From the NCBI GenBank assembly GCA_035294265.1, contig DATGLK010000095.1, positions 64,326-128,325 of the forward strand: 64,000 nt of DNA, in the 5' to 3' direction. The notes under the pieces were generated by a model. The model worked only from the letters and a program-made list of their open reading frames with translations, did not search any database and was not told the origin of the DNA. The translations under genes were made by a program, and so were the position numbers. Source of the stretch: Candidatus Binataceae bacterium (GTDB lineage Bacteria; Desulfobacterota; Binatia; Binatales; Binataceae). Within the stretch, counting starts at the first letter, position 1, and each line of letters opens with the position of its first letter. Shown here piece by piece: positions 11,346-40,661 of this stretch.

Positions 11346-11378
11346 GTCAGCGATCCGCGCATTGCGGCATTTGCCAGG

Positions 11379-24885: not shown

Positions 24886-25041
24886 ATGTGGAAGTATCGG
24901 GACCTGCCGATGGATTTAGCCGACGCGGCTTTGGTCCGGATCGCTGAGCGCGAAAAAATCCGCCGGATCTTCACCGTGGACAGAAGAGACTTTGGGCTCT
25001 ATCGGCCATACCGCCTGGGGCGTTTCGAGATTCTTCCGTAA
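24886..25041 (+). pseudogene. Remnant of PIN-domain (VapC-like) toxin gene, C-terminal 51 codons only
   Basis: MWKYRDLPMDLADAALVRIAEREKIRRIFTVDRRDFGLYRPYRLGRFEILP matches the C-terminal DxxxAAxA....L.T.D.DF segment of PIN domains; no N-terminal part present; abuts truncated CBM3-like ORF. Confidence 0.3.
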
Positions 25042-25074
25042 CTCGGAACAATCCGCGTACCAGCGGGCGCCGGA

Positions 25075-25974
25075 TCACCCCGGCAGGATGGCGACGACCT
25101 GGTCGTAGGGCACGTCATGGTCCAGGATTCCCATCTCGATCGCGAAGCGATTCATCCCGCTGACGGTTTGCGGCGAAATCGCGGGGTCGTAAAAGGGCAG
25201 GTCGCGGCGAACCAGCTCGGCGATAAGCTCGGCCTCTTGAGGTGGGAATAGCTTGCGACCGATTTCGCTTGCGCAGGTGTAATCGGCGCGCAGCGCGGCC
25301 TGGGCGGCGGCGATCGCGCGGCGCGCGCCGGCCGCATCGCGCGTGCTCAGACGCTCGGCCGCGGCTAGCGCGGCGAAGGTGTAATGGAACGCGGCGGGCG
25401 GGCCGTCACCGCGGCGGACGTCGAGCACTACGCTGCCCACCCCGCGCCGCACTGCGACCTCGGCGCCCATTCCGTTGGCCCAAAAGCCATCGATCTGTCT
25501 CGCTTCCAGAGCCCGCGCCGCGGTCAGGCCGAAATTGACCCCCGCTCCCTGCGCACCCGGCACCGGCGCAATCCGCACCGCGTTGCTCTCGGGCTCGATG
25601 CCGGCCTCGCTTAGCAAGCGGCGCAGCCCCATTTCCACCCAAGGCGCGGCGCCGATGCGGCGCCCTTTGACGATGCTCAAATCGCCGCGCACTGGATTGA
25701 GATCGCGCCGCATCACCAGGAACCAGTACATTCCCTGGGCTTGCGCGCATAAAAGTTTGACCCCCTCCCAGCGGGGAAAGGCGGCCAGGGCGGAATGGGC
25801 CGAGCCGCCGACGAAATCCACCGTGCCTTCGCGTAAGGCAGCATAGGCTCGGTCCACCGGAAAGATCAGCTCCAGACTTACGTCCATGTCTTCGCGTGCG
25901 AACAGCCCCATTTCCACCGCCGCTACCGCGGGAAAATACGAATTCGAAATCAGATCGGGAACCGCAAGTTTCAT
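25075..25974 (-). CDS. NMT1/THI5-like domain protein (NitT/TauT-type substrate-binding fold, no signal peptide)
   Basis: 299 aa; periplasmic-binding-protein type 2 fold similarity of nitrate/sulfonate/bicarbonate family; N-terminus MKLAVPDLISNSYFP lacks signal peptide. Confidence 0.5.
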   Translation of the reverse strand: MKLAVPDLISNSYFPAVAAVEMGLFAREDMDVSLELIFPVDRAYAALREGTVDFVGGSAHSALAAFPRWEGVKLLCAQAQGMYWFLVMRRDLNPVRGDLSIVKGRRIGAAPWVEMGLRRLLSEAGIEPESNAVRIAPVPGAQGAGVNFGLTAARALEARQIDGFWANGMGAEVAVRRGVGSVVLDVRRGDGPPAAFHYTFAALAAAERLSTRDAAGARRAIAAAQAALRADYTCASEIGRKLFPPQEAELIAELVRRDLPFYDPAISPQTVSGMNRFAIEMGILDHDVPYDQVVAILPG

Positions 25975-25978
25975 GATG

Positions 25979-26275
25979 CTACGACGCTTGAGCTGCCTGC
26001 GCCGATCGCTCGATGGCGGCCGCCAGGGCCAGGTCTTTGTCGGTAACCCCGCCTTCGCTGTGGGTGGAGCAGGTGAAGGTGACGCGATTGTAGTTGATCA
26101 GGATATCGGGATGATGGTCGGCGGCTTCGGCCTGCCAAGCGACCCAGTTGACCAGTGCCATCGCCGCTGCAAAACCGGAGCAACGGAACTGTTTGGCGAT
26201 GGCGCCGTCGTGCAACTTCCAGCCCGGGAGCGCGTTTAGACCGCGCTCGATCGCTTCGTTACTGAGCTGTGCCAT
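25979..26275 (-). CDS. 4a-hydroxytetrahydrobiopterin dehydratase (pterin-4-alpha-carbinolamine dehydratase)
   Basis: 98 aa; signature EAADHHPDILINYNRVTFTCSTH (E-x-x-x-HHP-x-[IL]) and overall PCD length. Confidence 0.7.
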   Translation of the reverse strand: MAQLSNEAIERGLNALPGWKLHDGAIAKQFRCSGFAAAMALVNWVAWQAEAADHHPDILINYNRVTFTCSTHSEGGVTDKDLALAAAIERSAQAAQAS

Positions 26276-26393
26276 GGCAGGTTTTACCTCCGTCCAGAGG
26301 TTACACCTTCAGGCTCAGCGGTGCGACGATAGTCCCTTTCCTCAGCGGGCCGTAAATCGAGCCGGCTGACGAAGGCCAGGGAGCTGGGCCGAA

Positions 26394-27818
26394 TTATTCG
26401 GCGCAACAGCTAAGTTTAGTTATGTCTTTGGTAAACGATAATGCGACGATCTTCAGCGCCTCGGACATGGTTGGATAGATGTGCAGCATGCCAACGAAGT
26501 CCTCGACCTTCGCCCCAAAGCGGATTCCCATCGCGGCTTCGTGGATTACTTCCGCCGCGTCCATGCCCAGCATCGAGACGCCCAGAACCTTGCCGCTGTC
26601 GCGCTCGGCGACCATCTTGATAACGCCGCGCGGATTGCGCACCGCCTGCGCACGTGGCACTTGCTCCATATCGACGGTACGGCAGGCGCATCGATAACCT
26701 CGCTCGACCGCTTCCTTGTCGGTCAGTCCGACCACGGCTACCTCGGGGTCGGTGAAGATGGCGCGCGGGATCACCCGATGGTCAACCTTGCGATGCGCCC
26801 CACCGAGCGCGTTAAGCGCCGCGATACCACCATCCTGGGCTCCTACCGGCGTCGCCATCTGGCTCTCCGTGTTAGAGCCGACTACATCCCCGGCGGCCCA
26901 AACGTGCGCAGCCGTCGTCTCCAACTCGTCGTTGACAATGATCGCAGCGCGCTGGTCGGTGCCCACTCCCGCCACGTCTAAGCCCAGCCCTTCAGTATTA
27001 GGAACTCGGCCCGTGGCAACAAGCAAGTGCGACGAGTGCAGGGCGCTTGAAGCATTTCCAGCTATCTCAACCAAGACACCTTCGCGATCTCTACGGACCG
27101 CCACCGCCTTGGTCCCGGTCAGGAGCGTGATTCCTTCCTCGCGCAGAACCTCGCCGAGCGTAACACCGACTTCAGGTTCATGGTTGGGCAGGATTCGCTC
27201 GCTTGGTTCGAGGATGGTCACTCGCGTGCCAAGCCGGTGAAAGAATTGCCCCAATTCGAGCGCGATATAGCCGCCACCCACAATCGTGAGCGACTCCGGC
27301 TGCTCCTTGAGTTCCATGGTTTCGTGGCTAGTCAGCAGATCGCTGGTCATGAACGGAACCTCGTCGAGGCCCTCTAGCGGTGGAATGAAAGGCCGTGATC
27401 CCGTCGCCACCAGAAAGCGTTCCGCTTCCAAGCGAACATCGCCCACCTGAACGGCGTTGCGATCGATAAACCGCGCCATTCCTTCGTATACGCTTATGCG
27501 ATCGCCGACGATGCTCTGGTATTTCTTCTCGCGATAGTAGGCGATCACCTCGTCTTTCTGGCCAACCAATTCCGCAAAGTTGACCTTAAGCCGCGCCGAC
27601 TTAATTCCCGGATAGCGCGGATGTTGCGCTTCATAAATGATGCTCGCCGCCGCGATCAGGTTTTTCGACGGGAGGCATCCGCGATTGACACAAGTACCGC
27701 CGAGGGTGCGGTTTTCCGTCATCGCAGCGGTCTTGCCGAGTTCCGCGGCACGGATGGCCGCGGCAAAAGCAGTTGCCCCCGAACCTAAAATGACCAAATC
27801 GAAGCGTCGCCTTTCCAT
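26394..27818 (-). CDS. merA: Mercuric reductase core (MerA without N-terminal NmerA domain)
   Basis: 474 aa; redox-active [19 protein letters not shown](P) Rossmann motifs; C-terminal vicinal cysteine dyad KLSCCAE diagnostic for MerA within this flavoenzyme family. Confidence 0.7.
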
Positions 27819-27885
27819 AAGTCTAAAATCCTTTTCAGCTAAGAGCGCAGTTCCAGTGAAGAGATACGAGCGCGCGCCGGCTGTC

Positions 27886-28245
27886 CTATGCTGCCCACTC
27901 CCGCCTCGTTTGAAGGGCCAAGTCGACCAAGGGTGCCGCTATGAGCAGGGCAATCCCCGGATAGGCGAGGGGATGCGAAAAGAACATTCCCGCCACCAGC
28001 AATATCGCGCCAGCCACGCCAATCCATAGCGCATAGGGACGGTGATGGCGCTGGAACGAACGCCACAAGCCCCACACGGTGAATGCCAGGAAAATGATCA
28101 GGAGCGGAAGTAGGATCGAGTCGCGGATTATAAAGCCCGCGCCGATTGCACTGACCAGCTCTATCAGCCAAGAGAAGCCGAGACAGCAAGCTGAAGCAAA
28201 GATCGCTCCAAGCGGTCCCCATTTTTCAGCATGAAACGATTTCAA
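27886..28245 (-). CDS. merT: MerT-like mercuric ion transporter (paralog 1)
   Basis: 119 aa, 3 TM; first TM carries vicinal Cys motif [11 protein letters not shown] matching MerT LASACCLGPLVL. Confidence 0.55.
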
Positions 28246-28301
28246 GCGTCCTCTCCCATAAGACCGTCAAACTCGGACTGTGGGTGCGGGAATCGGCACG
28301 G

Positions 28302-28676
28302 TCAGGGCGTGCCGGGCGCGTGGTGGCGCGTGTGTTCAATGTTGAGCTGAGTGTAAAACGACGCCGCTATCAGCAACGCCATCCCTGCGTAGGCTGCGCG
28401 TTGGTCAAAGACCAGACCGACCACCAGCAGTACGGCGCCGGTTAGGCTTATCCAGAGGTGCGTCTTCGAGTGGCTCTCGCAGGAATAACGCCACGAACCT
28501 ACGAGTGCGAAGCTCAGGCACACAGCCAGGAATGGAGCGAGAAAAACGTAGTGAACAAGAAACCCCACTCCAACGGTAGTGAGGATGCCTGTGAGCCACG
28601 ATGCGCCAAGACAACATGCCGCTGCCACGACCGCTCCGAGCGGACCCCATTTTGCCAGCGTCACCGGCGGTATCAC
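28302..28676 (-). CDS. merT: MerT-like mercuric ion transporter (paralog 2)
   Basis: 124 aa, 3 TM; AAACCLGASWL vicinal Cys motif in TM1. Confidence 0.55.
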   Translation of the reverse strand: MIPPVTLAKWGPLGAVVAAACCLGASWLTGILTTVGVGFLVHYVFLAPFLAVCLSFALVGSWRYSCESHSKTHLWISLTGAVLLVVGLVFDQRAAYAGMALLIAASFYTQLNIEHTRHHAPGTP

Positions 28677-28892
28677 GGGTCAACTCCAGTCCCTTCAAGC
28701 CACCACTGGTAATAACAAGTGCGGCAGTGAGCTGGCGGCTCGCAAACTCCGTCACGAAGCAGGCAGCCAAGTCCGCCTTCAAGGTCTCGCCCGCCGCACA
28801 ACGCACAACGCTCGCGGCGTATCCGCCGTTCAGCAGCTGCAAGTGCGTTGCCGTTTTCGAGCTGAGTGGCCATGGTCAGCGGCTCGCTGGAA

Positions 28893-29138
28893 TCAGACCT
28901 TCAGGTTGTGAGGTTGTTTCGGTGCCGCTTCGTTATCGACTCGATCGCGGCGACGATACAGCCACACGCCCAGAACAGCGGCGCCTAAGGCCAGTATGCT
29001 GAGAATGCCGCCAGTTCCCAAAGACGACCCCGCGTAACCTGCAAGCGAACAAATTGCGTCGCCGCAGGGATCGGCCAACGCAGTTGACGCAAGCAACACC
29101 GAAAATGACGCCGACATGACCGAAATTGCGTATCTCAT
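28893..29138 (-). CDS. Small secreted/membrane-anchored protein with CxxxxC pair
   Basis: 81 aa; signal peptide MRYAISVMSASFSVLLASTALA, DPCGDAIC, C-terminal TM ILSILALGAAVLGVWLY followed by RRRDR. Confidence 0.35.
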   Translation of the reverse strand: MRYAISVMSASFSVLLASTALADPCGDAICSLAGYAGSSLGTGGILSILALGAAVLGVWLYRRRDRVDNEAAPKQPHNLKV

Positions 29139-29185
29139 ATAATCATCTCACAATCGATCTATCGCTCGGCGGCCTGTCGCTCCGG

Positions 29186-30082
29186 TTACGCCTCGCGACT
29201 AACGCCGACTTGAAGTAAGTGACGATAGAGCACGGCTCCGGCCAGTGAACCGACCGAGCCGCCAGCAAGCGAGCCAACAACCGAGCCGAAAATCCAGCTC
29301 AGGCTTATGCCCACCGAGAACGCCCCACACTGGAGTACAATCGCCGGCAGAGTTAGGAGGACAAATACCCCGGCAGCCATCAGGCCCAGCACGACGGGGT
29401 GCCTCGGCGCCTTGATACCAACGATCGCGGTGGCAATCAGAAGCGGAGCCAGCGAATAAAGGCTCCCGAGCAGAAAGTACAAGGTCTGGCTTTGCACGCC
29501 TGCGAAGAGGTGGCGCACGCCTGGACTCATCTGGCAGTAATCCAACGCCTGGCCGATCGAGCAAGATCTGGTCAATGCCAGCGAAAGCCCCATCGCCAGC
29601 AACCCCGCGATACCGACCCATCGCGCGGCAATGCCATAGCGCGGCACTCCGCCGCCGCGCATCGCCAAAAGCACCGCAGCGGCGTACAAGGCAGCCCACG
29701 CCGCACCCATGCTCAGCAGCACTTGCGGTGAGAAGACCGTCAAATCGCTCTTTTGCCCAAGAACCCAGACTGAGGCAACTGAAAAGACCAGCCCCATTGT
29801 CACGCTCACGAGCGTCGATTTGCCCATCCGGGCGCTCTCGAGGTTCGCCTGTTCTCGCTCCAGCTCGTCCAGAACCCGCGTACGGGTTGTTTCCAAAAGC
29901 CTCGCGGGGACCTCCTCTTCGGAAAGCCCGCCCAGCGCGCGCCAGGTAAGCTTCATCTCTTGCCACGCCTGGCGGCAATTAGCGCATCCGCGCAGATGGA
30001 CCTGAAGTTTCGCCGGCATCTGAAGATTGCCATCGGCCAACGCGTTGGCCAGTTCGGTTTGAGTCTGTTCGCAGCTATTCAT
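29186..30082 (-). CDS. Anti-sigma factor, zf-HC2 type N-terminus with six-TM C-terminal domain
   Basis: N-terminal HLRGCANCRQ (H-x3-C-x2-C zinc finger typical of ECF anti-sigma factors); six hydrophobic segments downstream; 8-bp overlap with sigma factor gene. Confidence 0.6.
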   Translation of the reverse strand: MNSCEQTQTELANALADGNLQMPAKLQVHLRGCANCRQAWQEMKLTWRALGGLSEEEVPARLLETTRTRVLDELEREQANLESARMGKSTLVSVTMGLVFSVASVWVLGQKSDLTVFSPQVLLSMGAAWAALYAAAVLLAMRGGGVPRYGIAARWVGIAGLLAMGLSLALTRSCSIGQALDYCQMSPGVRHLFAGVQSQTLYFLLGSLYSLAPLLIATAIVGIKAPRHPVVLGLMAAGVFVLLTLPAIVLQCGAFSVGISLSWIFGSVVGSLAGGSVGSLAGAVLYRHLLQVGVSREA

Positions 30083-30656
30083 TGCCAGATTGACCCGCAG
30101 CTTTGTCTGGAGCGCAAAGGGCGGCGCGGAGTTGCGCCAGCGCGCGGAAAAGCCGCACCTTCACCGCTCCTTCGGAAATGCCAAGCGCCAAGGCAATTTC
30201 ACGCCCGTTGAGCCCTTGATATCGGCTGAGCAGCAGCACCTCCCGCAGGCCCTGCGGCAGTCGCAAAATTGCCGCTTGTAGCACCCTGCTGGTTTCGGTG
30301 GCCTCGGTCAGAGCCATCGGATCGGTATCCACGATCCGATGGTCTGCCGGAATCACGTCGATTGCTTCCTGGTCCATGGTCGTTTGCCGCCGGTGTTCAA
30401 CCCGGCTCTTTTCGTCTCTCAGCAGGTTGGCCGCGATAGTGAACAGAAAGGCCTTGAAAGTTCCCGCAACATAGTTCTTTCGCGCCTGGTGCAGGCGCAG
30501 GAACGTGGCTTGAAAGAGATCCTCCGCCATCGCGCGATCCCCGCTTGCACGGAGCAGAAAGTTGAACAGCCTGGTGCCATATCTCTTGAAGAGCTCGTCG
30601 AAAGCGCGGCCATCTCCGCCGGCGTATGCGAGCATCAAGTCCTCATCGTTCCGCAC
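30075..30656 (-). CDS. RNA polymerase ECF-type sigma-70 factor
   Basis: 193 aa; sigma-70 region 2 (FDELFKRYGTRLFNFLLR...DLFQATFLRL) and region 4 HTH (REIALALGISEGAVKVRLFRA). Confidence 0.8.
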   Translation of the reverse strand: MRNDEDLMLAYAGGDGRAFDELFKRYGTRLFNFLLRASGDRAMAEDLFQATFLRLHQARKNYVAGTFKAFLFTIAANLLRDEKSRVEHRRQTTMDQEAIDVIPADHRIVDTDPMALTEATETSRVLQAAILRLPQGLREVLLLSRYQGLNGREIALALGISEGAVKVRLFRALAQLRAALCAPDKAAGQSGNE

Positions 30657-30679
30657 GCTCCCTCCGCTCCTGCACCCCT

Positions 30680-30707
30680 TATAACGGGCCTGCCCGGCGA
30701 AAGTTAC
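30680..30707 (-). promoter_or_regulatory. Candidate ECF-type promoter (GGTAAC-N16-CGTTAT on minus strand) upstream of sigma/anti-sigma operon
   Basis: Reverse complement of 30676-30712 reads tgcGGTAACtttcgccgggcaggccCGTTATaag, ~20 nt upstream of sigma start codon. Confidence 0.35.
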
Positions 30708-30876
30708 CGCAGTTCAAAAACTGCACTTGTTTCGCTTAAAGATCCGTAGTCAGCCTCGGAACATTACGTTAACGGCAAATCGCAGCAAGACAAATCTAAG
30801 CTTAGATAACATTAGCAAAGCACAGACTGGGGAGTGCCTTCGTCGCCATGCTTTGGAGAGGCAGAGCTGTGCCTGC

Positions 30877-31140
30877 TCAGCTACGTCCATGGGCTCCGGT
30901 ACGCGTGGTCTTGGCATTAATCCACCGGTCAACCGCGGGGCGATAAAACCGCCAGTCGGAGCCCAACCTGAACGCCGGTAGCTCACGATGCTTGATCAGG
31001 CGATAGACCGTGCTGATATGGCAGCGCAAATAATCCGCCAGCATTTTCACGGTGAGGATTTCGTTCTTATCGCTTGGATAGACGGGGCGTGTGCGCAAGG
31101 CAGGCCGGGGCACCTTTTCATACTCATGATTACGACACAT
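30877..31140 (-). CDS. Helix-turn-helix DNA-binding protein (excisionase/HTH_17-type, MerR-superfamily-like HTH)
   Basis: 87 aa; LTVKMLADYLRCHISTVYRLIKHRELPAFRLGSDWRFYRPAVDRWI matches excisionase-type HTH; no metal-binding Cys cluster. Confidence 0.5.
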   Translation of the reverse strand: MCRNHEYEKVPRPALRTRPVYPSDKNEILTVKMLADYLRCHISTVYRLIKHRELPAFRLGSDWRFYRPAVDRWINAKTTRTGAHGRS

Positions 31141-31171
31141 AAGTCTTCTTGCTGCTTGCCTAAAATCAAAA

Positions 31172-31222
31172 CGGAATAGTCGCTTGAAAGTTACAGGCCA
31201 TGGCCTATAGTCGCTGCTCTGC
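31172..31222. promoter_or_regulatory. Repeat cluster in divergent intergenic region: direct repeats ATAGTCGCT x2 flanking perfect palindrome GGCCATGGCC
   Basis: Sequence ggaATAGTCGCTtgaaagttacaGGCCATGGCCtATAGTCGCTgct read directly; also GGTGA-N5-TCACC inverted repeat at 31231-31245. Confidence 0.3.
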
Positions 31223-31459
31223 GCTGCCCGGTGATTTGGTCACCTGAGTTCAAGCCGGCTGGCTGGGTCAGTAAAGCAGCCGATTAGACCCAAGCTCAAA
31301 ATGAAGTTGCCCCGTTTGGTCGCACGCGACCGCTTTGCCCGCGCCAAAGACCTTATTGCAGTGCGCCTTCAGACGATCGCCACAGCGCCCGCGTTTGCGC
31401 GCACGAATCCTCTTCCAGAGCGAATGTTGTGACCTGGCGGCCTCCTCTCTATCCGGTAT

Positions 31460-31486
31460 GTAACCTTCAGGCCTCATCCCCGTTCT
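31460..31486 (+). promoter_or_regulatory. Candidate ECF-type promoter (GTAACC-N15-CGTTCT) upstream of merTP-merA operon
   Basis: ggtatGTAACCttcaggcctcatcccCGTTCTtagc, 38 nt upstream of merTP start; same GTAAC-N16-CGTT spacing as the motif upstream of the ECF sigma gene. Confidence 0.35.
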
Positions 31487-31523
31487 TAGCGGATGAACCA
31501 GGCATCGTTAGGGAGTAGAAGAA

Positions 31524-32141
31524 ATGCCTTTAAAACCTGAAAGGCTTGGGTGGCTGTCGGTAATTCTGGCTTCGACCTGCTGTCTCTTCCCGCTGCTCGC
31601 AATCGGGCTCGGACTGGGAAGCATCGGGCTCGGGTCGTTTTTCGGACGGTTCGAGCCGTGGCTCGATCTGGGGGGTGTCCTAGTGGTCATCGCCGCCTGG
31701 TTGTATTTTATGCACGAGCGACGACGCGTATATGCATTGGGTTCGACCATAAAGGGCGAGCGGCGTACGCTCGTCGCGCTTTCGGTCGCCACCGTTCTGG
31801 TTGTGCTTTTTGCAGGTTCGGCATTGGTGAGTCATCTGTTGCCTCCCAGTTCGCCGATGCAGACCACATTTGCGCAGAGCGCAACCATCCGCGCCAGCGG
31901 CGCTTCCACCACCGCTAGAGTCAACTACCCGCGCGCGGTTCTCGCGGTCACAGGAATGGAGTGTTACGCATGCGTGCCAGAGATCGAGCACAGCTTGAAT
32001 AAGGTGCCCGGCGTCCATTTCGCTCAGGTGGATTTTCACCATCAGACGGTTACCGTCGAATATGACCCTGCCAAGGCGACCGCCGCTCAGTTGGTGAGCG
32101 CGGTAAAGTCCGTGGGATACGACGCCAAGGTTGCGGACTGA
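31524..32141 (+). CDS. merT: MerT-like transporter fused to C-terminal MerP-like heavy-metal-associated (HMA) domain
   Basis: 205 aa; TM1 with ILASTCCLFPLL (MerT vicinal Cys), two further TM, then HMA domain LAVTGMECYACVPEIEHSLNKVPGV (GMxCxxC). Confidence 0.6.
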   Translation: MPLKPERLGWLSVILASTCCLFPLLAIGLGLGSIGLGSFFGRFEPWLDLGGVLVVIAAWLYFMHERRRVYALGSTIKGERRTLVALSVATVLVVLFAGSALVSHLLPPSSPMQTTFAQSATIRASGASTTARVNYPRAVLAVTGMECYACVPEIEHSLNKVPGVHFAQVDFHHQTVTVEYDPAKATAAQLVSAVKSVGYDAKVAD

Positions 32142-32162
32142 ACGCTCTGTCGGAGAGGTAGC

Positions 32163-33584
32163 ATGTTGTTGGAAAGGAAAGCCAAGGGTGACTTCGACTT
32201 GTTCGTCCTCGGCGGTGGCTCGGCGGCGTTCGCCGCGGCGATTCGCGCGGCCGAGCTTGGTGCGCGCGTCGGCGTCGCCGAAGAGGGTGTTATCGGCGGT
32301 ACTTGCGTAAATCGCGGATGCGTGCCGAGCAAGAACCTGCTCTATGCCGCCGAGCGGTATTACGACTACTACAGGAATGGATTCGCCGGTTTGCCCCAGG
32401 GCAAGGAAGCGGCGAATTTCGCTCAAGTCATTGCTCAGAAGGATGACCTCGTCGAGGGGCTGCGCAAGGCCAAATATTGGGACGTCCTGGAGGCCTTTCC
32501 GCAGATCAAGTTTGTGTCCCGCCCGGCGGCGTTCGTTTCTGCCAATGAAGTAAGTGTCGGCGACCGGAAGGTCACCGCCGATCATTTTGTCATCGCGACT
32601 GGGGCGTCCGTGACGCGGCTGCCAATACCTGGACTGGAAAAGACACCCATTCTTACGTACAAGGAAGCTCTCGACCTCAAGCAGCTCCCGAAATCGCTCC
32701 TGGTGATCGGCGGGGGGCCGATCGGCCTTGAGCTTGGCCAGATGTATTCGCGCTTCGGGAGCAAGGTAACGATTCTCGAAGCTCTGCCGTATATCGCGCC
32801 ACTGGAGGACGGGGAGATCTCCGAGGCACTAAAGGCCTATCTGACAGAAGAAGGGCTTCAGGTTCTCACTTCGGTCAAGGTGACGCGGGTTGAACCGGTC
32901 GAGGGCGGTGTGCGAATCGAAGCCCTGATCGGTAGCAAGTCGGTGGATTTCTATGGCGAGCGACTGCTGCTTGCCGCCGGCCTTAAACCCAACACCCGCG
33001 ACCTCGGGCTAGACAAAGCCGGCGTCCGGCATGACGAGCGCGGAGCTGTAGTCGTTGACGACCAACTCAGGACCAGTGCGAAAAACATCTGGGCAGCGGG
33101 CGACGTCACCGGCCAAATGATGCTGGTCACGGTCTCGGCGATGGAGGGCGGGATCGCCGCCGAAAACGCGCTCGCGGGCGCTCGTAAAAGAATCGACCTG
33201 AGCCACGTGCCCCACGCGATCTTCACCTCACCGCAGGTCGCCTCGGTGGGCCTGCGCGAGCGCGACGCGAGATCTTCTGGGCGCAACATTTTGGCCGCCA
33301 AACTACCTTTCGCGCACGTGCCCAAGGCCGCCGCCGTGCGTGACACGCGCGGCCTTTTGAAGTTGGTCGTGGATGGTCGCAACTATCGGATCCTCGGCGC
33401 GCATTTGGTGGCGGCCGAGGCCGCGGATCTGATCCATATCGGCGTGCTGGCAGTTCAGCAGGGACTCACGGTCGGCGACTTGCTGCGCACCACTTTCGTT
33501 TATCCGACCCTGGCCGAGGCATTCAAGATCGCGGCCTTATCGTTCAACAAGGATGTGACCAAGCTAAGTTGCTGCGCGACATAA
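32163..33584 (+). CDS. merA: Mercuric reductase core (MerA paralog 2, no NmerA domain)
   Basis: 473 aa; [13 protein letters not shown] redox centre; C-terminal KLSCCAT vicinal cysteines. Confidence 0.7.
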   Translation: MLLERKAKGDFDLFVLGGGSAAFAAAIRAAELGARVGVAEEGVIGGTCVNRGCVPSKNLLYAAERYYDYYRNGFAGLPQGKEAANFAQVIAQKDDLVEGLRKAKYWDVLEAFPQIKFVSRPAAFVSANEVSVGDRKVTADHFVIATGASVTRLPIPGLEKTPILTYKEALDLKQLPKSLLVIGGGPIGLELGQMYSRFGSKVTILEALPYIAPLEDGEISEALKAYLTEEGLQVLTSVKVTRVEPVEGGVRIEALIGSKSVDFYGERLLLAAGLKPNTRDLGLDKAGVRHDERGAVVVDDQLRTSAKNIWAAGDVTGQMMLVTVSAMEGGIAAENALAGARKRIDLSHVPHAIFTSPQVASVGLRERDARSSGRNILAAKLPFAHVPKAAAVRDTRGLLKLVVDGRNYRILGAHLVAAEAADLIHIGVLAVQQGLTVGDLLRTTFVYPTLAEAFKIAALSFNKDVTKLSCCAT

Positions 33585-33720
33585 ACAACAGATTTAGCCC
33601 ATGATCGGCAATTGATTCGCTCGAAGGCTTGCGTACGCGCAACCGTGCTTTGCCCCCGTTGCCGGGCCCTCCTGTTCGCCTACGAATGCGCCGCGAGTGC
33701 GGCCGAGAGAGGAAGCTTTT

Positions 33721-34062
33721 ATGAGCAAAAGGATTACGATTGGGATATTGGCGCTGAGCGTCATGAGCTTGATCGCGTTGGGCGGACGCGGCGTGGCTCT
33801 GGCCGGCGACAAGACTTGCCCGCTGCAAATCAAGGGGATGCAGTGCGCGATGTGCGCGGGCGCAATCGAGGCCGCGCTGAAAGCCGTACCTGGCGTCAAA
33901 AGCGCAAAGGTCGATTACAGCTCGGCCCGCGCCGATGTCGTCGTGGACGATACGGTCCAGCCTGCCACTCTACTGGGCGCGGTTAAAAAGGCCGGCTTTG
34001 AGGCCGTTCCCCTGCCGGCGATGCCCCAAGCTCAGGCGAAGGATTCTTGCTGCAAGCGGTAG
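33721..34062 (+). CDS. merP: MerP-like periplasmic heavy-metal-binding protein (HMA domain) with extra C-terminal CC
   Basis: Signal peptide MSKRITIGILALSVMSLIALGGRGVALA; GMQCAMCAG metal-binding motif; C-terminal KDSCCKR. Confidence 0.6.
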   Translation: MSKRITIGILALSVMSLIALGGRGVALAGDKTCPLQIKGMQCAMCAGAIEAALKAVPGVKSAKVDYSSARADVVVDDTVQPATLLGAVKKAGFEAVPLPAMPQAQAKDSCCKR

Positions 34063-34071
34063 GAGACGAAC

Positions 34072-34866
34072 TTGCGCACCGTCGATTCACTGCTAGAAAG
34101 CGAGGAAGCTCGCGTTCTCCAGATTCTTTACGATGACTGGATGGACCTTCTGCGCTGCACGACCATCGACCAAGCGATGGAGCGGGTGAGAGTGCCATTT
34201 TCTCATAAAAGGCGGCTGCGCATAGCCGATCTCTTGCGGCAGGATAAACGAGCCGCGGCGCTGATGCGGTGGGATCTGTCGGCATATGTACTCACCAATG
34301 ATGAGAAGCTCTTCGCGCGCCTTATCCTGCGAGCCGCACCGTCTCTTGCGTTGATTCCCGATCCCGAGAGTCTTGGCACGGCCGCAATGGACTGGTCCCG
34401 TGGGGGTATTCCGCAAGCACTTGAGGCCCTTGAATGGGTTGGATTCTTGGAGCATGACACGGACGGCTACAAACTGGCTCCGGGCCAAGCCCGCGTAGTT
34501 AACGGCATCGGACTTAACTTCCATGAAGTGGTGCTGACCGACCGCGGCGAGCGCTTCAATACCAATTGTGCGACCGACTTCTTCATCATGACGCATCCGC
34601 CGACTCGCCAACGTGTATTGGAGCACCTCAGTTGCAAACACCTGCCGGAAATTACCGATGGGATAAGCAAAAAGATGACAGCGGCGATTCGTGCCGCCTC
34701 CGCCAGGGGACGGAGCCTTGCCCAAGCCAGCGATTATACGCGTGAGCGTGCCATCCTGAACGACGCCTGCGCGTGGACGCATGAACCCATCGGCATCGCC
34801 CTGGATTCCGGAGAATTGACCGAGGTTACGCCGGAGACAACGTGGTATCTGCGCGGCGGTGGCTGA
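34072..34866 (+). CDS. Possible organomercurial lyase MerB-like protein (divergent)
   Basis: 264 aa; segment RFNTNCATDFFIM resembles MerB active-site region (WCALDTLIF, Cys96/Asp99), second Cys in HLSCKHL; similarity weak and not verified. Confidence 0.35.
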   Translation: MRTVDSLLESEEARVLQILYDDWMDLLRCTTIDQAMERVRVPFSHKRRLRIADLLRQDKRAAALMRWDLSAYVLTNDEKLFARLILRAAPSLALIPDPESLGTAAMDWSRGGIPQALEALEWVGFLEHDTDGYKLAPGQARVVNGIGLNFHEVVLTDRGERFNTNCATDFFIMTHPPTRQRVLEHLSCKHLPEITDGISKKMTAAIRAASARGRSLAQASDYTRERAILNDACAWTHEPIGIALDSGELTEVTPETTWYLRGGG

Positions 34867-35041
34867 GGAGTCAACAATCTCTTCCGGTCGGAAGAGGCCG
34901 CAAGCTGCTGGTTCCAACGGCATCCGCAGATTGTCGCGGCCGAGAGCGGGCTGGTCAGAAAACTGTTTGGCGCCCGGATTGGCTCAAACACCCCCTAACG
35001 CTTGTCCAAAACCCATTCCCACAAGCGGAGCGAGGAGAACA

Positions 35042-35317
35042 ATGAAACAGGTACGAACCACAGGAATCATGCTTGCCGCAGCCGTCGGTCTGATGTTTGC
35101 GGCTCAGCCTGTTCTGGCGGCCGGCTCGGGTAGCACGGCGTCGCAAGCCAAGGTCAAGTGTGTAGGCGCCAATAGCTGCAAGGGGCAGAGCTCTTGTAAG
35201 ACCGCGACCAGCGCCGGACCGGGCCAGAACTCTTGCAAGGGGCAAGGCTTTATCCTGACCTCGAATGCCAAGGAGTGTCGGGAAAAGGGCGGCCATCCCG
35301 AGTCGATGAAGATGTAG
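35042..35317 (+). CDS. DUF2282-type Cys-rich signal-peptide protein (bufferin BufA-like RiPP precursor)
   Basis: 91 aa; signal peptide MKQVRTTGIMLAAAVGLMFAAQPVLAAGS; core KVKCVGANSCKGQSSCKTATSAGPGQNSCKGQGFILTSNAKECREKGG with 5 Cys in pattern typical of DUF2282 (KCyGvakaGkNdCa...sCaG...C). Confidence 0.6.
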   Translation: MKQVRTTGIMLAAAVGLMFAAQPVLAAGSGSTASQAKVKCVGANSCKGQSSCKTATSAGPGQNSCKGQGFILTSNAKECREKGGHPESMKM

Positions 35318-35333
35318 CTGAGGCCAACCCATA

Positions 35334-35660
35334 ATGAGCCCGATGAGGATCTACCGCAGAGTCGGCTTCCAAAGCATGACGAGCAACGGTCTAAGGGTGA
35401 CAATCTCCGTGATTGCTCCGCTTGCTATAGCCGCAACACTGGCCGTTGCAGTTGTGCGCTACGAGCCGGCGTCGCTAGCCGCAGGGGAAGAAGCGCAGTG
35501 TCAGCAATCCTTGCGAAACACTATGAAGGAGGCGGCAGGCCACCCCGACGGCTCGCTTGGCCGCTTATTTGCGAACGACAAACTGGCGTCACGAAGAGTG
35601 GTCGAAGTCGCGGAGGTCAACGAGCGGCTACTGCTTGCCAAATCACCCAGGTTTACATGA
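35334..35660 (+). CDS. Hypothetical protein with one predicted TM segment
   Basis: 108 aa ORF between precursor and MNIO genes; no recognisable domain; followed by ~290 bp lower-GC non-coding tract. Confidence 0.3.
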   Translation: MSPMRIYRRVGFQSMTSNGLRVTISVIAPLAIAATLAVAVVRYEPASLAAGEEAQCQQSLRNTMKEAAGHPDGSLGRLFANDKLASRRVVEVAEVNERLLLAKSPRFT

Positions 35661-35945
35661 CTTTCCTGCCGGGCGCGCGTGACGCAGGCCCTCAAAACAG
35701 ACGGATGGCAGACAACAACAGACGACGGAAGTCCGTCAGTCATCGCAATTTGCGCGTTGAACCGTAGGCTTGATGCCTCGGGAATCTCATTGGCTATTAA
35801 GAAGGCGCTCGAAGCCGACCCGTATAACCACACCCCGATCTCAACGCGCGCCCTTGAGTTAAAGGCAAGGACTTCAGAAAACTCCCTGGCTACCAAAGAC
35901 CCTGCGTCCCAAAAGGCGACAAACAGTATTAAGTGAGCTGCGGCG

Positions 35946-36833
35946 GTGTTCCGTGAACGATTTTCAGACTTGGGCTATGGCGTCGGCCTGCGCCGCGAAC
36001 ACTATAGCCACGTAACGGAGCATCGACCCGCGGTCGATTGGTTCGAGATCATCACGGAAAACTTCATGGTCGCCGGTGGCCTGCCGCTTACGGTGCTGGA
36101 AAGAGTCCGCAGCGACTATCCGGTCGTGATGCATGGCGTGTCGCTCTCGATTGGCTCGGCGGGTCCGTTAAATCGCAATTACCTCGCCACGTTGCGGACA
36201 ATGACCCACCGGTTCAAGCCGTTCTGGATCTCCGACCATCTATGCTGGACGGAAATCGGCGGGCGCAACCTCCACGATCTCCTGCCGCTGCCGTACACGG
36301 AAGAGGTTGTCCGTCATGTTGCCGGCCGCATCCGCCAGGTTCAGGACTGTTTGGACCAGGAGATCCTTATCGAGAATGTGTCCAGCTATATGACGTTTCG
36401 ATGCTCGACCATGCAGGAATGGGAGTTTCTGAGCGCGGTGGCCGAAGAGGCCAATTGCGGCATCCTGCTCGATATCAACAATGTCTACGTCAACGCCTTT
36501 AACCACGGATTCGACCCGGTCCTTTACATCGATTCGGTACCGCCCAACCGCGTGGTTCAGTTCCATATGGCCGGCCACAGCGACCACGGCACCTATCTGC
36601 TTGACACCCACGATCATCCGATCCGGGAGGAAGTGTGGCGGCTCTACGAATTGGCCGTACGTCGTTTCGGGGCGACTTCGACGTTGATTGAGTGGGACGA
36701 CAACATCCCTGAGTTCGGCGTGCTGGCCGACGCCGCCAAAGAGGCGCGCGATCGCGCGTGGAACGTGATGGCGGCGGAAACGGAAGGTGGCGATGGATCT
36801 GGCTTTGAGCGCGGGGTCTTATCGCGCGCTTGA
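35946..36833 (+). CDS. DUF692 / multinuclear non-heme iron oxygenase (MNIO; MbnB/BufB-like RiPP-modifying enzyme)
   Basis: 295 aa, GTG start; full-length match to DUF692 pattern (VDWFEIITENFM...VMHGVSLSIGS...WISDHLCW...LIENVSSYM...LLDINNVYVNAFNHGFDP...FHMAGHSD...LLDTHDHP...TLIEWDDNIPEF). Confidence 0.8.
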   Translation: MFRERFSDLGYGVGLRREHYSHVTEHRPAVDWFEIITENFMVAGGLPLTVLERVRSDYPVVMHGVSLSIGSAGPLNRNYLATLRTMTHRFKPFWISDHLCWTEIGGRNLHDLLPLPYTEEVVRHVAGRIRQVQDCLDQEILIENVSSYMTFRCSTMQEWEFLSAVAEEANCGILLDINNVYVNAFNHGFDPVLYIDSVPPNRVVQFHMAGHSDHGTYLLDTHDHPIREEVWRLYELAVRRFGATSTLIEWDDNIPEFGVLADAAKEARDRAWNVMAAETEGGDGSGFERGVLSRA

Positions 36834-37378
36834 CAACCTCCTCAGAAGGAGCGAACGGCCAACTTCATAGGGGCTCGTTCGCTCCCGAGAGAAGATCGAG
36901 AAGATTGTTCATGGAGACGCTCGCCTCGGATCGGTCGAGCGGCTGCAGATTTAGTAACCTGCCGACTTCGGCGGGCTTTTGGGACGCCTTACGGGAGGAT
37001 TACCACGTCACCTTGGCGGTGATCGGCGAGAAACGGTTGCGCACGCTGGTCGCTGCGCAACTGACCGCACATCCATCAGACAGTCCATTCGCTCTGTGGA
37101 GTCGCTAGTTTCCGCCTGGATTTCATCGCTCGCTATTCGGAGATCACGCGATGGCTTTTTCTGGGCGACCTCGCGCGGCTGGAACGAACGATGCTGGAGG
37201 TTTCCCATTGGATGCGCCACTCGCAATCGAGAATCGTTGTGGCCGGATGATGAAAACTGGAGCTGACAGGCAAGGGCAAACAGACCGCAATCCCGGAAAG
37301 GCGCCGGATGACGATTCTGGTCTGGCGGGATGATAACGAAGTGTATCGCCGGCGTTTGGAATCGAATCGGTCGAACGG
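36830..37378 (+). pseudogene. Decayed DUF2063 (MbnC/BufC-like MNIO partner) gene: frameshift, tandem in-frame stops, internal deletion
   Basis: Frame 2 (36830-37108) gives ...VIGEKRLRTLVAAQLTAHPSDSP (DUF2063 HPP motif); frame 0 (37065-37250) gives LCGVASFRLDFIARYSEITRWLFLGDLARLERTMLEVSH (DFADFL...LEWA-like) ending in TGATGA; frame 0 continues ...RMTILVWRDDNEVYRRRL (C-terminal LLVWR motif) with ~50 aa missing in between. Confidence 0.45.
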
Positions 37379-37589
37379 ATAGCGCCCGGGCCTAGTCCGG
37401 GAAGAGGCAGCCTTTGGAGCTGTCTACGAAGCTGTTGCGCCATTGTTGGGAGCCGGCGCGGTAAGACACATCAGTGCAATGCTCGCGCGTTGGTTGCGCG
37501 ATGGCCTGCTTCGGACCAGGACCAGACAGAAAACACAGTATCCGAGTAACACGATTCAGCCGCGACCTTCCGAGCACGTTTTCGCTGCA

Positions 37590-38393
37590 ATGATGAGCCC
37601 TGCCTTGTTACACTTCTGGTTCCTGCTACCTATAGGCATCATTATCGCGGCGCTCGCAATGTCGGCCGGGGTGTCCGGCGCCAGCCTATGGGTGCCGGTC
37701 TATCTGCTCTGGCTTCGGCTCAGTGTTCCGATCGCTTTCTGGCTCGGGCTCCTTACGATGCTGTTTGGCTTCGGCAGCGGCGTTTACCGGAACTGGCGGG
37801 ACCACAGCTACGACGGTCCCTTAGTTCGCCGCTATCTGGCCGCGAGCCTGCCCGCCGCGCTGCTCGGCGGATGGCTCGCGGGACTCGTCAACGAGAAACT
37901 CTTGGTCGGCCTGTTCGGCGTTTTCCTGCTCGTCTACGGCGCAACGATCGCCACGCTCACGCTGCGCGGCCTTGTCCCGGTGGAGCGCCGCCAATCCATT
38001 TCGTATCCGTTTGCGCTCATAGGCGGCGGACTCACGGGACTAATCTCGATTGGGGTCGGAATTCTCGCCATGCCGGTCGTAATGCGTCATCGCTCCATCC
38101 GCGCGCCAGCAATGGCAATCGGCTCGCTGGTGATGATCATATTCTTCACAAGCCTTGCCGCAACCATCGGCCGCCTAAGACCCAGCTTCGTTAGCGATCT
38201 TCGCCGCGATCTGCCGCAGCTTGGCGTCATCATGTTGTGGGCCGCGCCAGCCGTGGTCTTGGGCGGCCAGCTCGGACCGCGGCTCGCGCAACGCTTGCCT
38301 TCCGAGCGGCATGCTCGGCTCTACTTCAGCGCCGTGGTGTTCGCGGTCGGCATCCTAACCTTAGCTCGCGCTTACGCTGGACCTCACGGGTGA
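37590..38393 (+). CDS. TSUP family membrane protein (sulfite exporter TauE/SafE-like)
   Basis: Start at ATG 37590 (MMSPALLHFWFLLPIGIIIAALAMSAGVSGASLW...); two internally repeated 4-TM halves with G-rich motifs. Confidence 0.6.
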   Translation: MMSPALLHFWFLLPIGIIIAALAMSAGVSGASLWVPVYLLWLRLSVPIAFWLGLLTMLFGFGSGVYRNWRDHSYDGPLVRRYLAASLPAALLGGWLAGLVNEKLLVGLFGVFLLVYGATIATLTLRGLVPVERRQSISYPFALIGGGLTGLISIGVGILAMPVVMRHRSIRAPAMAIGSLVMIIFFTSLAATIGRLRPSFVSDLRRDLPQLGVIMLWAAPAVVLGGQLGPRLAQRLPSERHARLYFSAVVFAVGILTLARAYAGPHG

Positions 38394-38395
38394 AA

Positions 38396-39382
38396 GGACC
38401 ATTGATCCACGGCGTTCACGGGCCGCGTCGGATTCACCTGCTACAGATTGTTCATGGCGTCGCTCGAACTCTCGCAATTCTAGCGACCATTACGGTTTGG
38501 TTTGCGCCACTGGCTGCGGCGGGACCGCCCCTTGCGACCGCCGGACCAATTACGTTCTTCACCACGCTTCCGGTTACCATCGGGGGTTTGTTCCTATTGG
38601 ACATCACCAACCCGGCTGGTGCTACTGCGAATTCCGCCATCCAACAGGGACATGGGTTTTCGCTGGGCGAGACCCTCGATATCGGATACGGCGTTACGCC
38701 GAAGCTCCAACTGTTCGCGCTGATACCGTGGTTCGTGCACAAGTCACTCGCTCAAACCGCGTCCAACGGGACTCATACGAGCTCCGGATCTAACGGCTTC
38801 GGCGACACGCTGTTCCTGGCGCGGTATACGCTGATCGGCTTCGAGCACGCGGAATCCGCACTCCGCATCGCGCCTATCGCGGGCCTCAAAACGCCCACGG
38901 TGATAAGCGATACAGGGTTCAGCAAAATTCCGCGCCCGCTCCAGCCGGGATCGGGAACGTGGGATCCGTTGTTCGGCCTGACGCTCGTCTGGCAGACGCT
39001 GGATTGGGAGTTCGATGCGGACGCCGGCTATCGCATTAACACCACGGCTGGACACTTCCGTTTCGGTAACCAAGTGTTCGCCGACGGATCAGTTCAGTAC
39101 CGTCTGTGGCCCTTTCAAATCGGAGCCGGCAACCCAGGCTTCATCTACGCGACGCTCGACAGCAACTTCTTCGGACAAGGTAAGAACCGGGTCAACGGAC
39201 GCGCCGATCCGGATTCCGGCGGTTTGCTCTGGTTTTTGGATCCAGGAGTCCAGTATGTTACCGAGCGCTACGCGTTGAAGGCCGCGGCACAACTGCCGGC
39301 GCTCGAAGCCCCCAACGGCAGCGCTCCGTCGCCGGACTATGCTGTGTTTGTCTGCCTGCGCTTGAACCTCTCGTTGCCCTGA
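38396..39382 (+). CDS. Secreted hypothetical protein, outer-membrane beta-barrel-like (start codon unresolved)
   Basis: Signal-like ARTLAILATITVWFAPLAAAGPP; alternating amphipathic beta-strand pattern; a 166-bp piece of this gene is duplicated at 43570-43735. Confidence 0.4.
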   Translation, partial: GPLIHGVHGPRRIHLLQIVHGVARTLAILATITVWFAPLAAAGPPLATAGPITFFTTLPVTIGGLFLLDITNPAGATANSAIQQGHGFSLGETLDIGYGVTPKLQLFALIPWFVHKSLAQTASNGTHTSSGSNGFGDTLFLARYTLIGFEHAESALRIAPIAGLKTPTVISDTGFSKIPRPLQPGSGTWDPLFGLTLVWQTLDWEFDADAGYRINTTAGHFRFGNQVFADGSVQYRLWPFQIGAGNPGFIYATLDSNFFGQGKNRVNGRADPDSGGLLWFLDPGVQYVTERYALKAAAQLPALEAPNGSAPSPDYAVFVCLRLNLSLP

Positions 39383-39830: not shown

Positions 39831-40661
39831 CTAATACCAAACGCGTGTGCCGAAGATGAAGCGAGGATCGTTGACGATTCCGCCTTCTTCGCGCGTAAAC
39901 CGAGCAGTCTCGCCGAATGTCTGGGTGTAAGCGAAGCCGATGTAGGGCGCGAACTTGCGGCTAATTTCGTAACGGATGCGCACTCCCGTATCGAGATCCG
40001 AGAGCCCCGAACCGATACCGCGACTCGGATCATTTGTGTTGTAGAAATTGACTTCGAACTCGGGCTGCATAATCAGCCGATTGGTGAGCAGCAGGTCGTA
40101 CCATCCGGTGACTTTTCCGGCGAAGCGGCCCCGGTCGCTGAAGTAGAAGGTCGGCGCGAATTCGAAAAAATACGGAGCCAGTCCCTCGATTCCGACCGCG
40201 CCCCACGTCATTCCAGGATTTGAGTCAAGGTCGTAACGAACTCCGGCCTGGAAATCGAAGTATCTGAGATAGGGTATCGGTCGGTCATAGAGCGCCTCGG
40301 TGTCGCCATCGGTGGCTACGCCGTGTTCAGCAAAGCCTTCGGATTTGAACCACAGTTTGTTCATGTCCGTCCCGATCCAACCCTCGCCATCCCAACGAAA
40401 TTCATTGTCTGGACCGTTAGTGCGCCCTTCGAGCTGATCGAAGAGGATATGTCCGAAAATCTGATTGTCCATCACCGGAGGTTCCTCTTCTTCCGGACTT
40501 GTAACGCCGGAATTTTGAGTGGTTGTGGCGGTCGATTGCGCATTCGTGACCGAAGGCGCTAAAGCAATCAAACCGACAAGGACGAGGATGAGCATCAAGG
40601 CAGATGCCGAAGCCGAATCGAATTCCGCGGTGCTCTCTCGCCCGGCTGTCGTCGTCCTCAT
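39831..40661 (-). CDS. copB: Copper resistance protein B (CopB/PcoB outer membrane protein)
   Basis: Start at internal Met overlapping copA stop (ATGA); signal peptide, Met/acidic-rich N-terminal region, C-terminal beta-barrel ending ...FIFGTRVWY. Confidence 0.75.
   Translation of the reverse strand: MRTTTAGRESTAEFDSASASALMLILVLVGLIALAPSVTNAQSTATTTQNSGVTSPEEEEPPVMDNQIFGHILFDQLEGRTNGPDNEFRWDGEGWIGTDMNKLWFKSEGFAEHGVATDGDTEALYDRPIPYLRYFDFQAGVRYDLDSNPGMTWGAVGIEGLAPYFFEFAPTFYFSDRGRFAGKVTGWYDLLLTNRLIMQPEFEVNFYNTNDPSRGIGSGLSDLDTGVRIRYEISRKFAPYIGFAYTQTFGETARFTREEGGIVNDPRFIFGTRVWY

Follow-up and report, generated by a model that had tools for sequence, protein, structure and literature searches.

A 64-kb window (the whole stretch of 64,000 nucleotides analysed here, from contig DATGLK010000095.1) of a Candidatus Binataceae metagenome-assembled genome, derived from an uncultured soil-type bacterium, carries a real chromosomal mercury-detoxification gene island. 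Its MerB-like gene (plus strand, 34072–34998) is, judged by comparison with its homologs, a mis-annotated selenoprotein gene in which the UGA at 34864–34866 is predicted to be decoded as selenocysteine (Sec). Two features of the island are notable: it appears to encode a member of a new Sec-containing MerB-like family whose proteins are mis-annotated as truncated, and it appears to possess an extracytoplasmic function (ECF) sigma factor and anti-sigma factor dedicated to the regulation of the mercury resistance (mer) genes. The account as a whole, i.e., a mercury island with a candidate Sec-containing MerB-like lyase and an ECF pair in the place of MerR, is in our judgement probable. More tentatively, and with rather less than even confidence, we propose that the MerB-like proteins constitute an unrecognized selenium-dependent family of organomercurial lyases, present in many metagenomes, in which Sec substitutes for one or both of the Hg-binding cysteines of MerB, and that loci of the Binataceae type additionally employ a new ECF-type mercury sensor.

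The island is organized as two divergent operons, as derived from the open reading frame (ORF) listing and family scans. The minus-strand operon runs in the order sigma factor, anti-sigma factor, an 81-residue CxxxxC protein, two merC-like genes and merA-1, and the plus-strand operon in the order merTP-like, merA-2, merP-like and merB-like. Identical island proteins are also encoded on two metagenome contigs. A first-pass annotation of this DNA had called a mercury-resistance island here; every gene it listed is present in its place, and the call holds since both reductases pass the MerA equivalog model and retain the signature residues.

The MerB-like gene and its in-frame UGA

The merB-like ORF had been taken to end at 34866. 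This position is the last nucleotide of an in-frame TGA, beyond which the frame continues to a TAA at 34996–34998, giving 308 codons in total; the conserved TGA and the extension behind it had been missed. Databases hold the protein as a 264-residue hypothetical, gene callers and the NCBI annotation arrive at the same length, and family scans with the 264-codon ORF returned no Pfam or NCBIfam match. About 100 homologs of this ORF were found, nearly all of them unnamed, two with a precomputed Pfam MerB match. Most of them stop at ...WYL(R/L)GGG, and a few homologs of 302–303 residues run on with CGVNNLFRSEEA... at this point. Translation past the TGA in the window yields GGG*GVNNLFRSEEAASCWFQRHPQ..., an extension that aligns residue for residue with Cys-containing homologs (P0004 and P0015–P0023; GGG-C-GVNNLFRSEEA...).

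The conservation of the site was examined in 73 related loci fetched from genome and metagenome collections, a scan of species-representative genomes having yielded 3 loci and a metagenome scan 68. In the 55 loci covering the site, the codon is TGA in about 50, TGC (Cys) in four and TGG in a single degraded-looking case. The frame remains open and conserved for 35–45 codons past the site in all covering loci; protein identities among the roughly 50 TGA loci are 42–100%. TGA serves as an ordinary stop in 14 of the 28 window genes, and recoding would therefore be site-specific. The combination of a TGA, an open frame on both sides and a hairpin with a GGTC loop occurs only once in the window on either strand.

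This SECIS-like (selenocysteine insertion sequence) hairpin, CUCUUCC-GGUC-GGAAGAG at 34879–34896 on the plus strand, was obtained as the centroid of the local fold. It starts 12 nucleotides past the UGA and consists of a 7–8-bp stem capped by a GGUC loop; the apical loop of the E. coli fdhF SECIS is GGUC as well. Since the hairpin overlaps conserved codons, synonymous variation was measured. Synonymous sites are frozen in codons +5 to +10 (CTC in 32/32, TTC in 32/32, CGG in 23/23, TCG in 29/32, GAA in 28/32 and GAG in 30/32 sequences), whereas the Gly, Val, Pro and Leu codons on either side, although conserved to the same degree in the protein, display 1.4–2.5 bits of synonymous entropy. As far as codon usage can tell, these frozen synonymous sites show RNA-level selection just past the TGA. 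In the Cys-form locus L065, other codons are used and the hairpin is lost. Several features by which bacterial selenoprotein genes are recognized were found at the site: a conserved in-frame UGA, coding sequence downstream of it, Cys homologs, and a SECIS-type hairpin with G/U in the loop.

The position of the UGA within the protein appears to coincide with the active site of MerB. All eight full-length family members match Pfam MerB (PF03243) weakly (20.2 bits, with the cutoff at 27; E-value 1.3e-5 in the best member), and the NCBIfam MerB models NF033555 and NF009710 match one member each, with E-values of 0.018–0.075. A profile of the full-length members matches the MerB2 structure 5c17 (E 6e-5) with GGG[C/U] aligned to GGTC, the Cys of which we take to be equivalent to Cys159, and the MerB core fold is recognizable in the family. 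Alignment by hhalign to an R831b MerB sequence places U265 on Cys159; with single MerB sequences, C166/D169 fall on C96/D99 and U265 on C159, at very low probabilities. The motif NTNC166-A-T-D169, in which the Cys is nearly invariant and the Asp invariant throughout the family, pairs with YAWCAWD of canonical MerB, again at low hhalign probability. These alignments place Sec265 at the position of the MerB Hg ligand Cys159 and, more tentatively, Cys166 and Asp169 at those of Cys96 and Asp99. Cys159 itself is not retained: the window gene has Sec, a chemically analogous ligand, in its place, and a minority of the homologs have Cys. The protein appears to begin with a helical domain of about 95 residues that is peculiar to this family, followed by a winged-helix segment and the MerB core.

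A profile search among 1.84 billion cluster representatives recovered 135 family members, and 17 cluster representatives stop exactly one residue short of the position equivalent to Cys96. The DNA of two such representatives was checked. Locus L079 (1679–2596), arranged as merR, HMA (heavy-metal-associated domain) gene and MerB-like gene, features a TGA at the Cys96-equivalent position (RFNIN-U-ALDF) and a second TGA at GGG-U-G, and L080 (158–841) features a TGA at the Cys96-equivalent position. A hairpin with a GGUC loop follows the first TGA in L079, where it is clear, and the TGA in L080, where it is short (4 bp). By these codon assignments, either or both Hg ligands can be Sec in this superfamily. 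The occurrence of TGA at the Cys96-equivalent position in relatives therefore provides independent support for the active-site assignment.

The genomic context of the Sec-type MerB-like gene also points to mercury. When the window proteins were compared with the fetched loci by tblastn, the order merA, HMA gene, Sec-MerB-like gene was found in about 15 loci, the HMA gene being kept between the other two. A MerR homolog precedes the module in eight loci, among them L013, L014, L037, L045 and L079; the order in L014 is merR, merC-like, merA, HMA gene and Sec-MerB-like gene. Because the module order recurs, also behind merR, the Sec-MerB-like protein would take the position of merB in mer operons that are ordinary in other respects. 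Locus L046 (7139–10900) contains three MerB-like genes under the same ECF pair: two of the Cys type (7139–7798 and 8263–9411, the latter with the motif YAWCAWD...SFCHYIHFF) and one of the Sec type, with a MerC-like gene lying between the MerB-like genes.

The ECF sigma/anti-sigma pair

The first gene of the minus-strand operon (30075–30656) encodes an ECF-type sigma factor (Sigma70_r2, Sigma70_r4_2; TIGR02937 at 92 bits against a cutoff of 42.9) consisting of regions 2 and 4 only. It overlaps by 8 nucleotides with the co-transcribed anti-sigma gene (29186–30082, minus strand), whose product combines an N-terminal zinc finger of the ZAS type (Cys4 ... H-x3-C-x2-C) with a multi-span C-terminal membrane domain and matches NF052368 weakly; its homologs P0123 and P0124 carry PF13490 (zf-HC2). 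In six anti-sigma homologs (40–87% identity), the C/H/C/C zinc motif is invariant, as are cysteines within YC(Q/K)xSP and LQCGAFS. The first-pass annotation had listed both genes without treating them as a regulator, a role for which synteny and a promoter motif of the AAC...CGT type now argue.

The sigma factor is found beside mer genes in L003–L011, L043, L046 and L074–L078, and all homologous loci inspected, the most divergent at 38% identity, have the pair next to mer genes. In L003–L011, the pair is divergent to merTP, as in the window, and in L043 and L046, where the anti-sigma factors share 40–50% identity, it still resides with mer genes. At 63% identity (L077/78), a divergent HMA gene is followed by sigma, anti-sigma, the 81-residue protein gene and merC; at 52% (L074/75), a divergent merTP-like gene by sigma, anti-sigma, the 81-residue protein gene and merA; and at 38% (L076), the order is sigma, anti-sigma, merTP-like and merA. 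In L074, merA is followed by a gene (10687–11847) for a 386-residue, outer-membrane-like protein without a family match.

The intergenic regions share the motif GTAAC(C/T)-N15-CGTT on both strands, ahead of the sigma gene and of merTP. Four matches were counted in the window, as compared with 0.24 expected from shuffled sequences. GTAACT-N15-CGTTAT (30681–30707, minus strand) lies about 25 nucleotides upstream of the sigma gene as a putative autoregulated promoter, GTAACC-N15-CGTTCT (31460–31486, plus strand) 37 nucleotides upstream of merTP, and a third copy (31168–31194, minus strand) upstream of an HTH_17 gene. The fourth match, GTAACC-N15-CGTTCC (59753–59779, plus strand), is situated about 120 nucleotides upstream of a 137-residue lipoprotein-like ORF (59899–60312) and may be due to chance or mark a distant regulon member. 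In related loci, the motif is present ahead of the sigma gene in L003–L011, L043, L046, L076 and L077, ahead of merTP in L003–L011, L043, L046, L074 and L076, and directly ahead of the Sec-MerB-like gene in L033, L048 and L064.

The earlier statement that no MerR-type regulator is present is borne out for the window, where tblastn with a Tn501 MerR sequence gave a chance-level match only (E 0.45). The same query found no MerR in L003–L011, the MerR homologs in eight other related loci serving as a positive control, and no ArsR was found in the window with sequence queries and Pfam scans. Synteny, promoter motif and the lack of a detectable MerR together suggest that the ECF pair probably replaces MerR. 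The 87-residue HTH_17/excisionase-type DNA-binding protein encoded between the operons (30877–31140, minus strand; PF12728 at 48.8 bits, TIGR01764), which the first-pass annotation had overlooked, was considered as a MerR substitute and rejected: its domain is of the excisionase type, the gene lies behind an ECF-type promoter, and it is accessory, with no counterpart in L003–L011. It may be a mobile-element remnant or a lineage-specific accessory regulator.

Reductases, transport proteins and neighbouring genes

MerA-1 (26394–27818, minus strand) and MerA-2 (32163–33584, plus strand) score 520.4 and 508.4 bits, respectively, with the NCBIfam MerA equivalog TIGR02053, the cutoff of which is 454.45 bits. 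Their closest solved structures are the MerA proteins of Lysinibacillus (5x1y), Metallosphaera (4ywo) and Tn501 (1zk7), to which they align end to end with conservation of the CxxxxC pair, both active-site tyrosines and the C-terminal CC. In MerA-1, the aligned signatures are GGTCVNRGC, the Tyr of KY, the Tyr of IYPT and the terminal KLSCCAE; MerA-2 ends in KLSCCAT, so that the two proteins share (I/V)YPT and KLSCCA(E/T). The two reductases are, as their signatures indicate, bona fide core MerA proteins, and Hg(II) reduction is predicted for both. A resemblance to other disulfide reductases or the lack of the C-terminal CC, named at the outset as findings that would speak against mercuric reductase, was not observed.

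Family scans and structure alignments also confirm that the NmerA domain is present in neither protein. The description of merA as duplicated is correct as to the number of copies; a recent duplication is rejected, though, since MerA-1 and MerA-2 share 42% identity and would therefore be old paralogs. The features that had been called atypical do exist but mostly represent known variation. For early-branching lineages, Boyd and Barkay reportedly described in 2012 both MerA cores that lack NmerA and mer operons that lack MerR. Several MerA copies occur in 777 of 6274 MerA-encoding bacterial genomes (PMC8261052). Multiple merA copies, NmerA-less MerA and MerR-less operons are therefore not novel in themselves.

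The two minus-strand proteins initially labelled MerT-like are indeed membrane proteins, with a vicinal Cys pair (CC) in transmembrane helix 1, yet they fall into the MerC family (PF03203) and do not pass the MerT models. Protein a (27886–28245, minus strand) scores 46.9 bits, above the gathering cutoff of 27.6 bits, and is a candidate Hg(II) importer; protein b (28302–28676, minus strand), 45% identical to a, lies just below it with 26.0 bits. Matches to the NCBIfam MerF, MerC and MerT equivalogs are weak and far below the cutoffs. The MerTP-like protein (31524–32141, plus strand) is a fusion of a MerT-like membrane domain, with CC in helix 1, to an HMA domain (GMECYAC; PF00403 at 56 bits). 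It remains below the models NF033556 MerTP_fusion (73 bits, cutoff 180) and MerT (19.7 bits, cutoff 150), and the second Cys pair is, by its sequence, absent. The MerP-like HMA protein (33697–34062, plus strand) features a signal peptide, GMQCAMC and a C-terminal CC. It passes the generic HMA domain (PF00403 at 50 bits) and misses the MerP model TIGR02052 (43.4 bits, cutoff 92.55). Its probable start is the ATG at 33721, yielding 113 residues in agreement with a 113-residue gene call in L001.

The 81-residue protein (28893–29138, minus strand) has no family assignment. It combines a signal peptide, a C-x4-C pair (DPCGDAIC) and a C-terminal membrane anchor. Its gene follows the anti-sigma gene in L003–L011, L074 and L077 and merA in L076, and all of these homologs retain the Cys pair (DACTDFLC, DPCNSAIC, ICGGVC). 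A role as a co-sensor, or as an Hg-binding partner in the periplasm, is conceivable. The pterin-4a-carbinolamine dehydratase gene (25979–26275, minus strand; PF01329, NF002017), which had been counted among the minus-strand operon genes, was rejected as a part of the mer system. No such gene is found beside merA-1 homologs in related loci, and because of this lack of synteny it probably stands outside.

Downstream of the MerB-like gene, a BufA2-type bufferin precursor gene (35042–35317, plus strand; NF050166 Cu_RiPP_BufA2 at 75 bits, cutoff 60) starts 43 nucleotides past the stop codon. It is followed on the plus strand by a 108-residue ORF without assignment (35334–35660) and the gene for the MNIO-family maturase BufB (35946–36833; NF050167 at 374 bits, cutoff 310; PF05114). 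No convincing terminator was seen between the MerB-like gene and BufA2, with which it is possibly co-transcribed, and the plus-strand mer operon possibly continues into the bufferin operon. No normal-sized BufC/DUF2063 gene was found after BufB. BufA2 and BufB genes follow the Sec-MerB-like gene in L003, L006 and L011 as well, and BufB in L007. This recurrence suggests a copper-type metallophore linked to the mer module; the bufferin genes are adjacent to, and outside, the core mer system. A TauE/SafE-family permease is encoded at 37443–38393, and CopB (PF05275) and a CopA-type multicopper oxidase at 39831–42625 (minus strand), 5 kb downstream, making the region a broader metal-stress neighbourhood.

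Mechanism, alternative readings and known systems

The following mechanism is proposed. The membrane anti-sigma factor would hold the ECF sigma factor through its ZAS domain as long as mercury is absent. Thiophilic Hg(II) would then attack the zinc-binding cysteines and/or the two invariant cysteines of the membrane domain, and the freed sigma factor would transcribe both operons along with its own gene. The MerP-like protein and the small CxxxxC protein would capture periplasmic Hg(II), which the MerTP-like and MerC-like proteins would pass into the cytoplasm for reduction to volatile Hg(0) by either of the NmerA-less MerA proteins. Aided by the hairpin at 34879–34896, the UGA would be decoded as Sec, and the MerB-like protein would cleave C–Hg bonds as MerB does, acting as a C–Hg lyase that hands Hg(II) to MerA. 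We infer the uptake and reduction roles from family membership.

Several observations weigh against this account. No selA, selB, selC or selD was found in the 64-kb window by tRNA and Pfam scans and a SelD query, so that the ability of the host to insert Sec is only implied. The local fold energy of the 63 nucleotides around the UGA is not unusual as compared with shuffled sequences (z -0.38); the hairpin being too small for this test, synonymous-site conservation was used in its place. The hairpin lies inside the conserved LFRSEE coding segment, where no compensatory double changes are observable, and no Rfam family was matched, a permissive scan of 25000–38500 yielding chance-level hits only and no SECIS family. 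With regard to function, the MerB-like protein falls short of the gathering cutoff of Pfam MerB and of the cutoff of every NCBIfam MerB model, and the equivalences to C96 and D99 rest on weak alignments together with conservation. Moreover, Sec binds Hg more tightly than Cys does; product release may therefore be slow, which would favour binding over catalysis. Finally, the nearby copper-related genes (bufferin, CopA/CopB) leave room for another metal as the inducer of the sigma factor. If, in the light of the first of these points, the TGA at 34864 were a true stop, the product would be a 264-residue protein devoid of the third active-site residue, and the conservation downstream would represent a relic or a separate small ORF. 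The uniform 264-residue calls and the absence of visible Sec machinery from the window are in line with this reading, which we nevertheless regard as hardly credible. A relic would decay, whereas the TGA and its in-frame extension have been kept in about 50 loci across the full range of identities; the extension lacks its own start codon, and its counterpart in the Cys homologs and in MerB2 is their C-terminus; the frozen synonymous sites mark an RNA element right behind the TGA; and in more distant relatives another TGA stands exactly where the other active-site Cys would be, again with a GGUC-loop hairpin behind it.

Given Sec insertion, the MerB-like protein might still be a cytoplasmic acceptor or chaperone that relays Hg(II) on its Cys/Sec pair from the importers to the MerA cores, replacing the missing NmerA. 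Such a role would suit two reductases that both lack NmerA and a gene that, in many loci, stands immediately behind merA and the HMA gene. The strong affinity of Hg for Se is better matched to binding than to turnover, and the two Cys-type MerB-like genes alongside the Sec-type gene in L046 suggest that the Sec-type protein may act differently. On the other hand, the proton-donor Asp of MerB (D169) is invariant together with the Cys, although it would be superfluous in a pure chaperone, and in MerR-type loci the gene stands where merB would be in an operon that is canonical in other respects. We consider a pure chaperone unlikely. Canonical MerB itself hands Hg(II) directly to MerA, and the lyase and chaperone roles are therefore not exclusive. 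It may further be asked whether the island is mercury-specific at all, since the ECF pair could be a general sensor of thiol-reactive compounds or soft metals (Cu, Au, Ag, electrophiles) with a response that also takes in the bufferin and Cop genes. Thiol oxidation in general is what ZAS anti-sigma factors such as RsrA respond to, the bufferin operon begins directly behind the MerB-like gene and recurs there in related loci, and CopB and the multicopper oxidase are close by. The constant neighbours of the pair at every homologous locus, however, are merA and the MerT/MerC/HMA genes, whereas bufferin and cop genes are inconstant. The promoter motif precedes sigma, merTP, HTH_17 and, elsewhere, MerB-like genes, with none found ahead of the cop genes, and both reductases carry the complete MerA-specific signature. 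A general sensor appears quite improbable, and mercury is retained as the putative inducer.

Should the lyase reading be true, surveys of merB miss members of this family, which are held as truncated hypothetical proteins. Because of the sub-cutoff scores and the truncation at the UGA, likely organomercury-handling enzymes are invisible to surveys built on MerB and MerA models, and the 264-residue calls in the family should be extended through the UGA. Sec at an Hg site inside a true mer operon would offer a direct molecular handle on the interplay of mercury and selenium, with Sec and Cys variants that can be compared in their cleavage of C–Hg bonds and their transfer of Hg to MerA. A mer-dedicated ECF pair, if real, would offer a mercury switch other than MerR and a possible biosensor part.

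In comparison with mer operons of the Tn21/Tn501 type (merR-merT-merP-(merC)-merA-(merB)-merD), the island contains the same functional parts: a periplasmic HMA protein, Cys-pair importers of the MerT/MerC kind, the flavin disulfide reductase MerA with its C-terminal Cys pair, and, behind merA, a MerB-like gene. It differs in having an ECF sigma/anti-sigma pair and ECF-type promoters instead of MerR and MerD, in being split into two divergent operons, each with its own NmerA-less MerA, and in featuring as MerB equivalent a distant, longer homolog that would use Sec. Core MerA without NmerA and the lack of MerR are shared with the mer operons of early-branching lineages, which are, unlike the island, simple and without a dedicated ECF regulator or a selenoprotein. 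With RsrA-SigR and CnrH-CnrY-CnrX, the regulatory pair has in common an ECF sigma factor co-transcribed with an anti-sigma factor that carries an H-x3-C-x2-C zinc motif, and a seemingly autoregulated promoter; as in Cnr, the sigma factor would drive a metal-resistance determinant. RsrA is soluble, whereas the anti-sigma factor of the island spans the membrane several times and has two invariant cysteines in its membrane domain; a further difference is that the conserved partners of the pair are mer genes. No description of an ECF-controlled mer operon was found in literature searches.

With MerB and MerB2 (PDB 3f2g, 5c17), the Sec-MerB-like protein shares 19–21% identity over the aligned core, and it differs from them by the extra N-terminal helical domain, by Sec in place of Cys159 and by its sub-cutoff model scores. 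The closest parallel is SaoL (NF040728), a MerB homolog of about 213 residues with a CU motif and Sec at the Cys159 position, encoded in the SAO locus of anaerobes and described by Haft and Gwadz (bioRxiv 10.1101/2022.07.06.499078). Both are MerB homologs with Sec at the residue corresponding to MerB Cys159. SaoL is the sole MerB-like entry in a 2026 review of prokaryotic selenoproteins, and the SaoL model matched none of the eight full-length members even at an E-value of 10; the island protein would therefore belong to a second, distinct Sec-containing MerB-like family, residing in bona fide mer operons, of which no description was found in the searchable literature. While the motif of SaoL is C-U, that of the island family is GGG-U-G, in proteins of about 300 residues with an additional N-terminal domain of roughly 100 residues. 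SaoL is embedded in the SAO locus next to an ABC transporter, whereas the island family lies beside merA, the HMA gene and merTP in genuine mer operons. In a further difference from SaoL, distant relatives of the island family would carry Sec at the Cys96 position as well.

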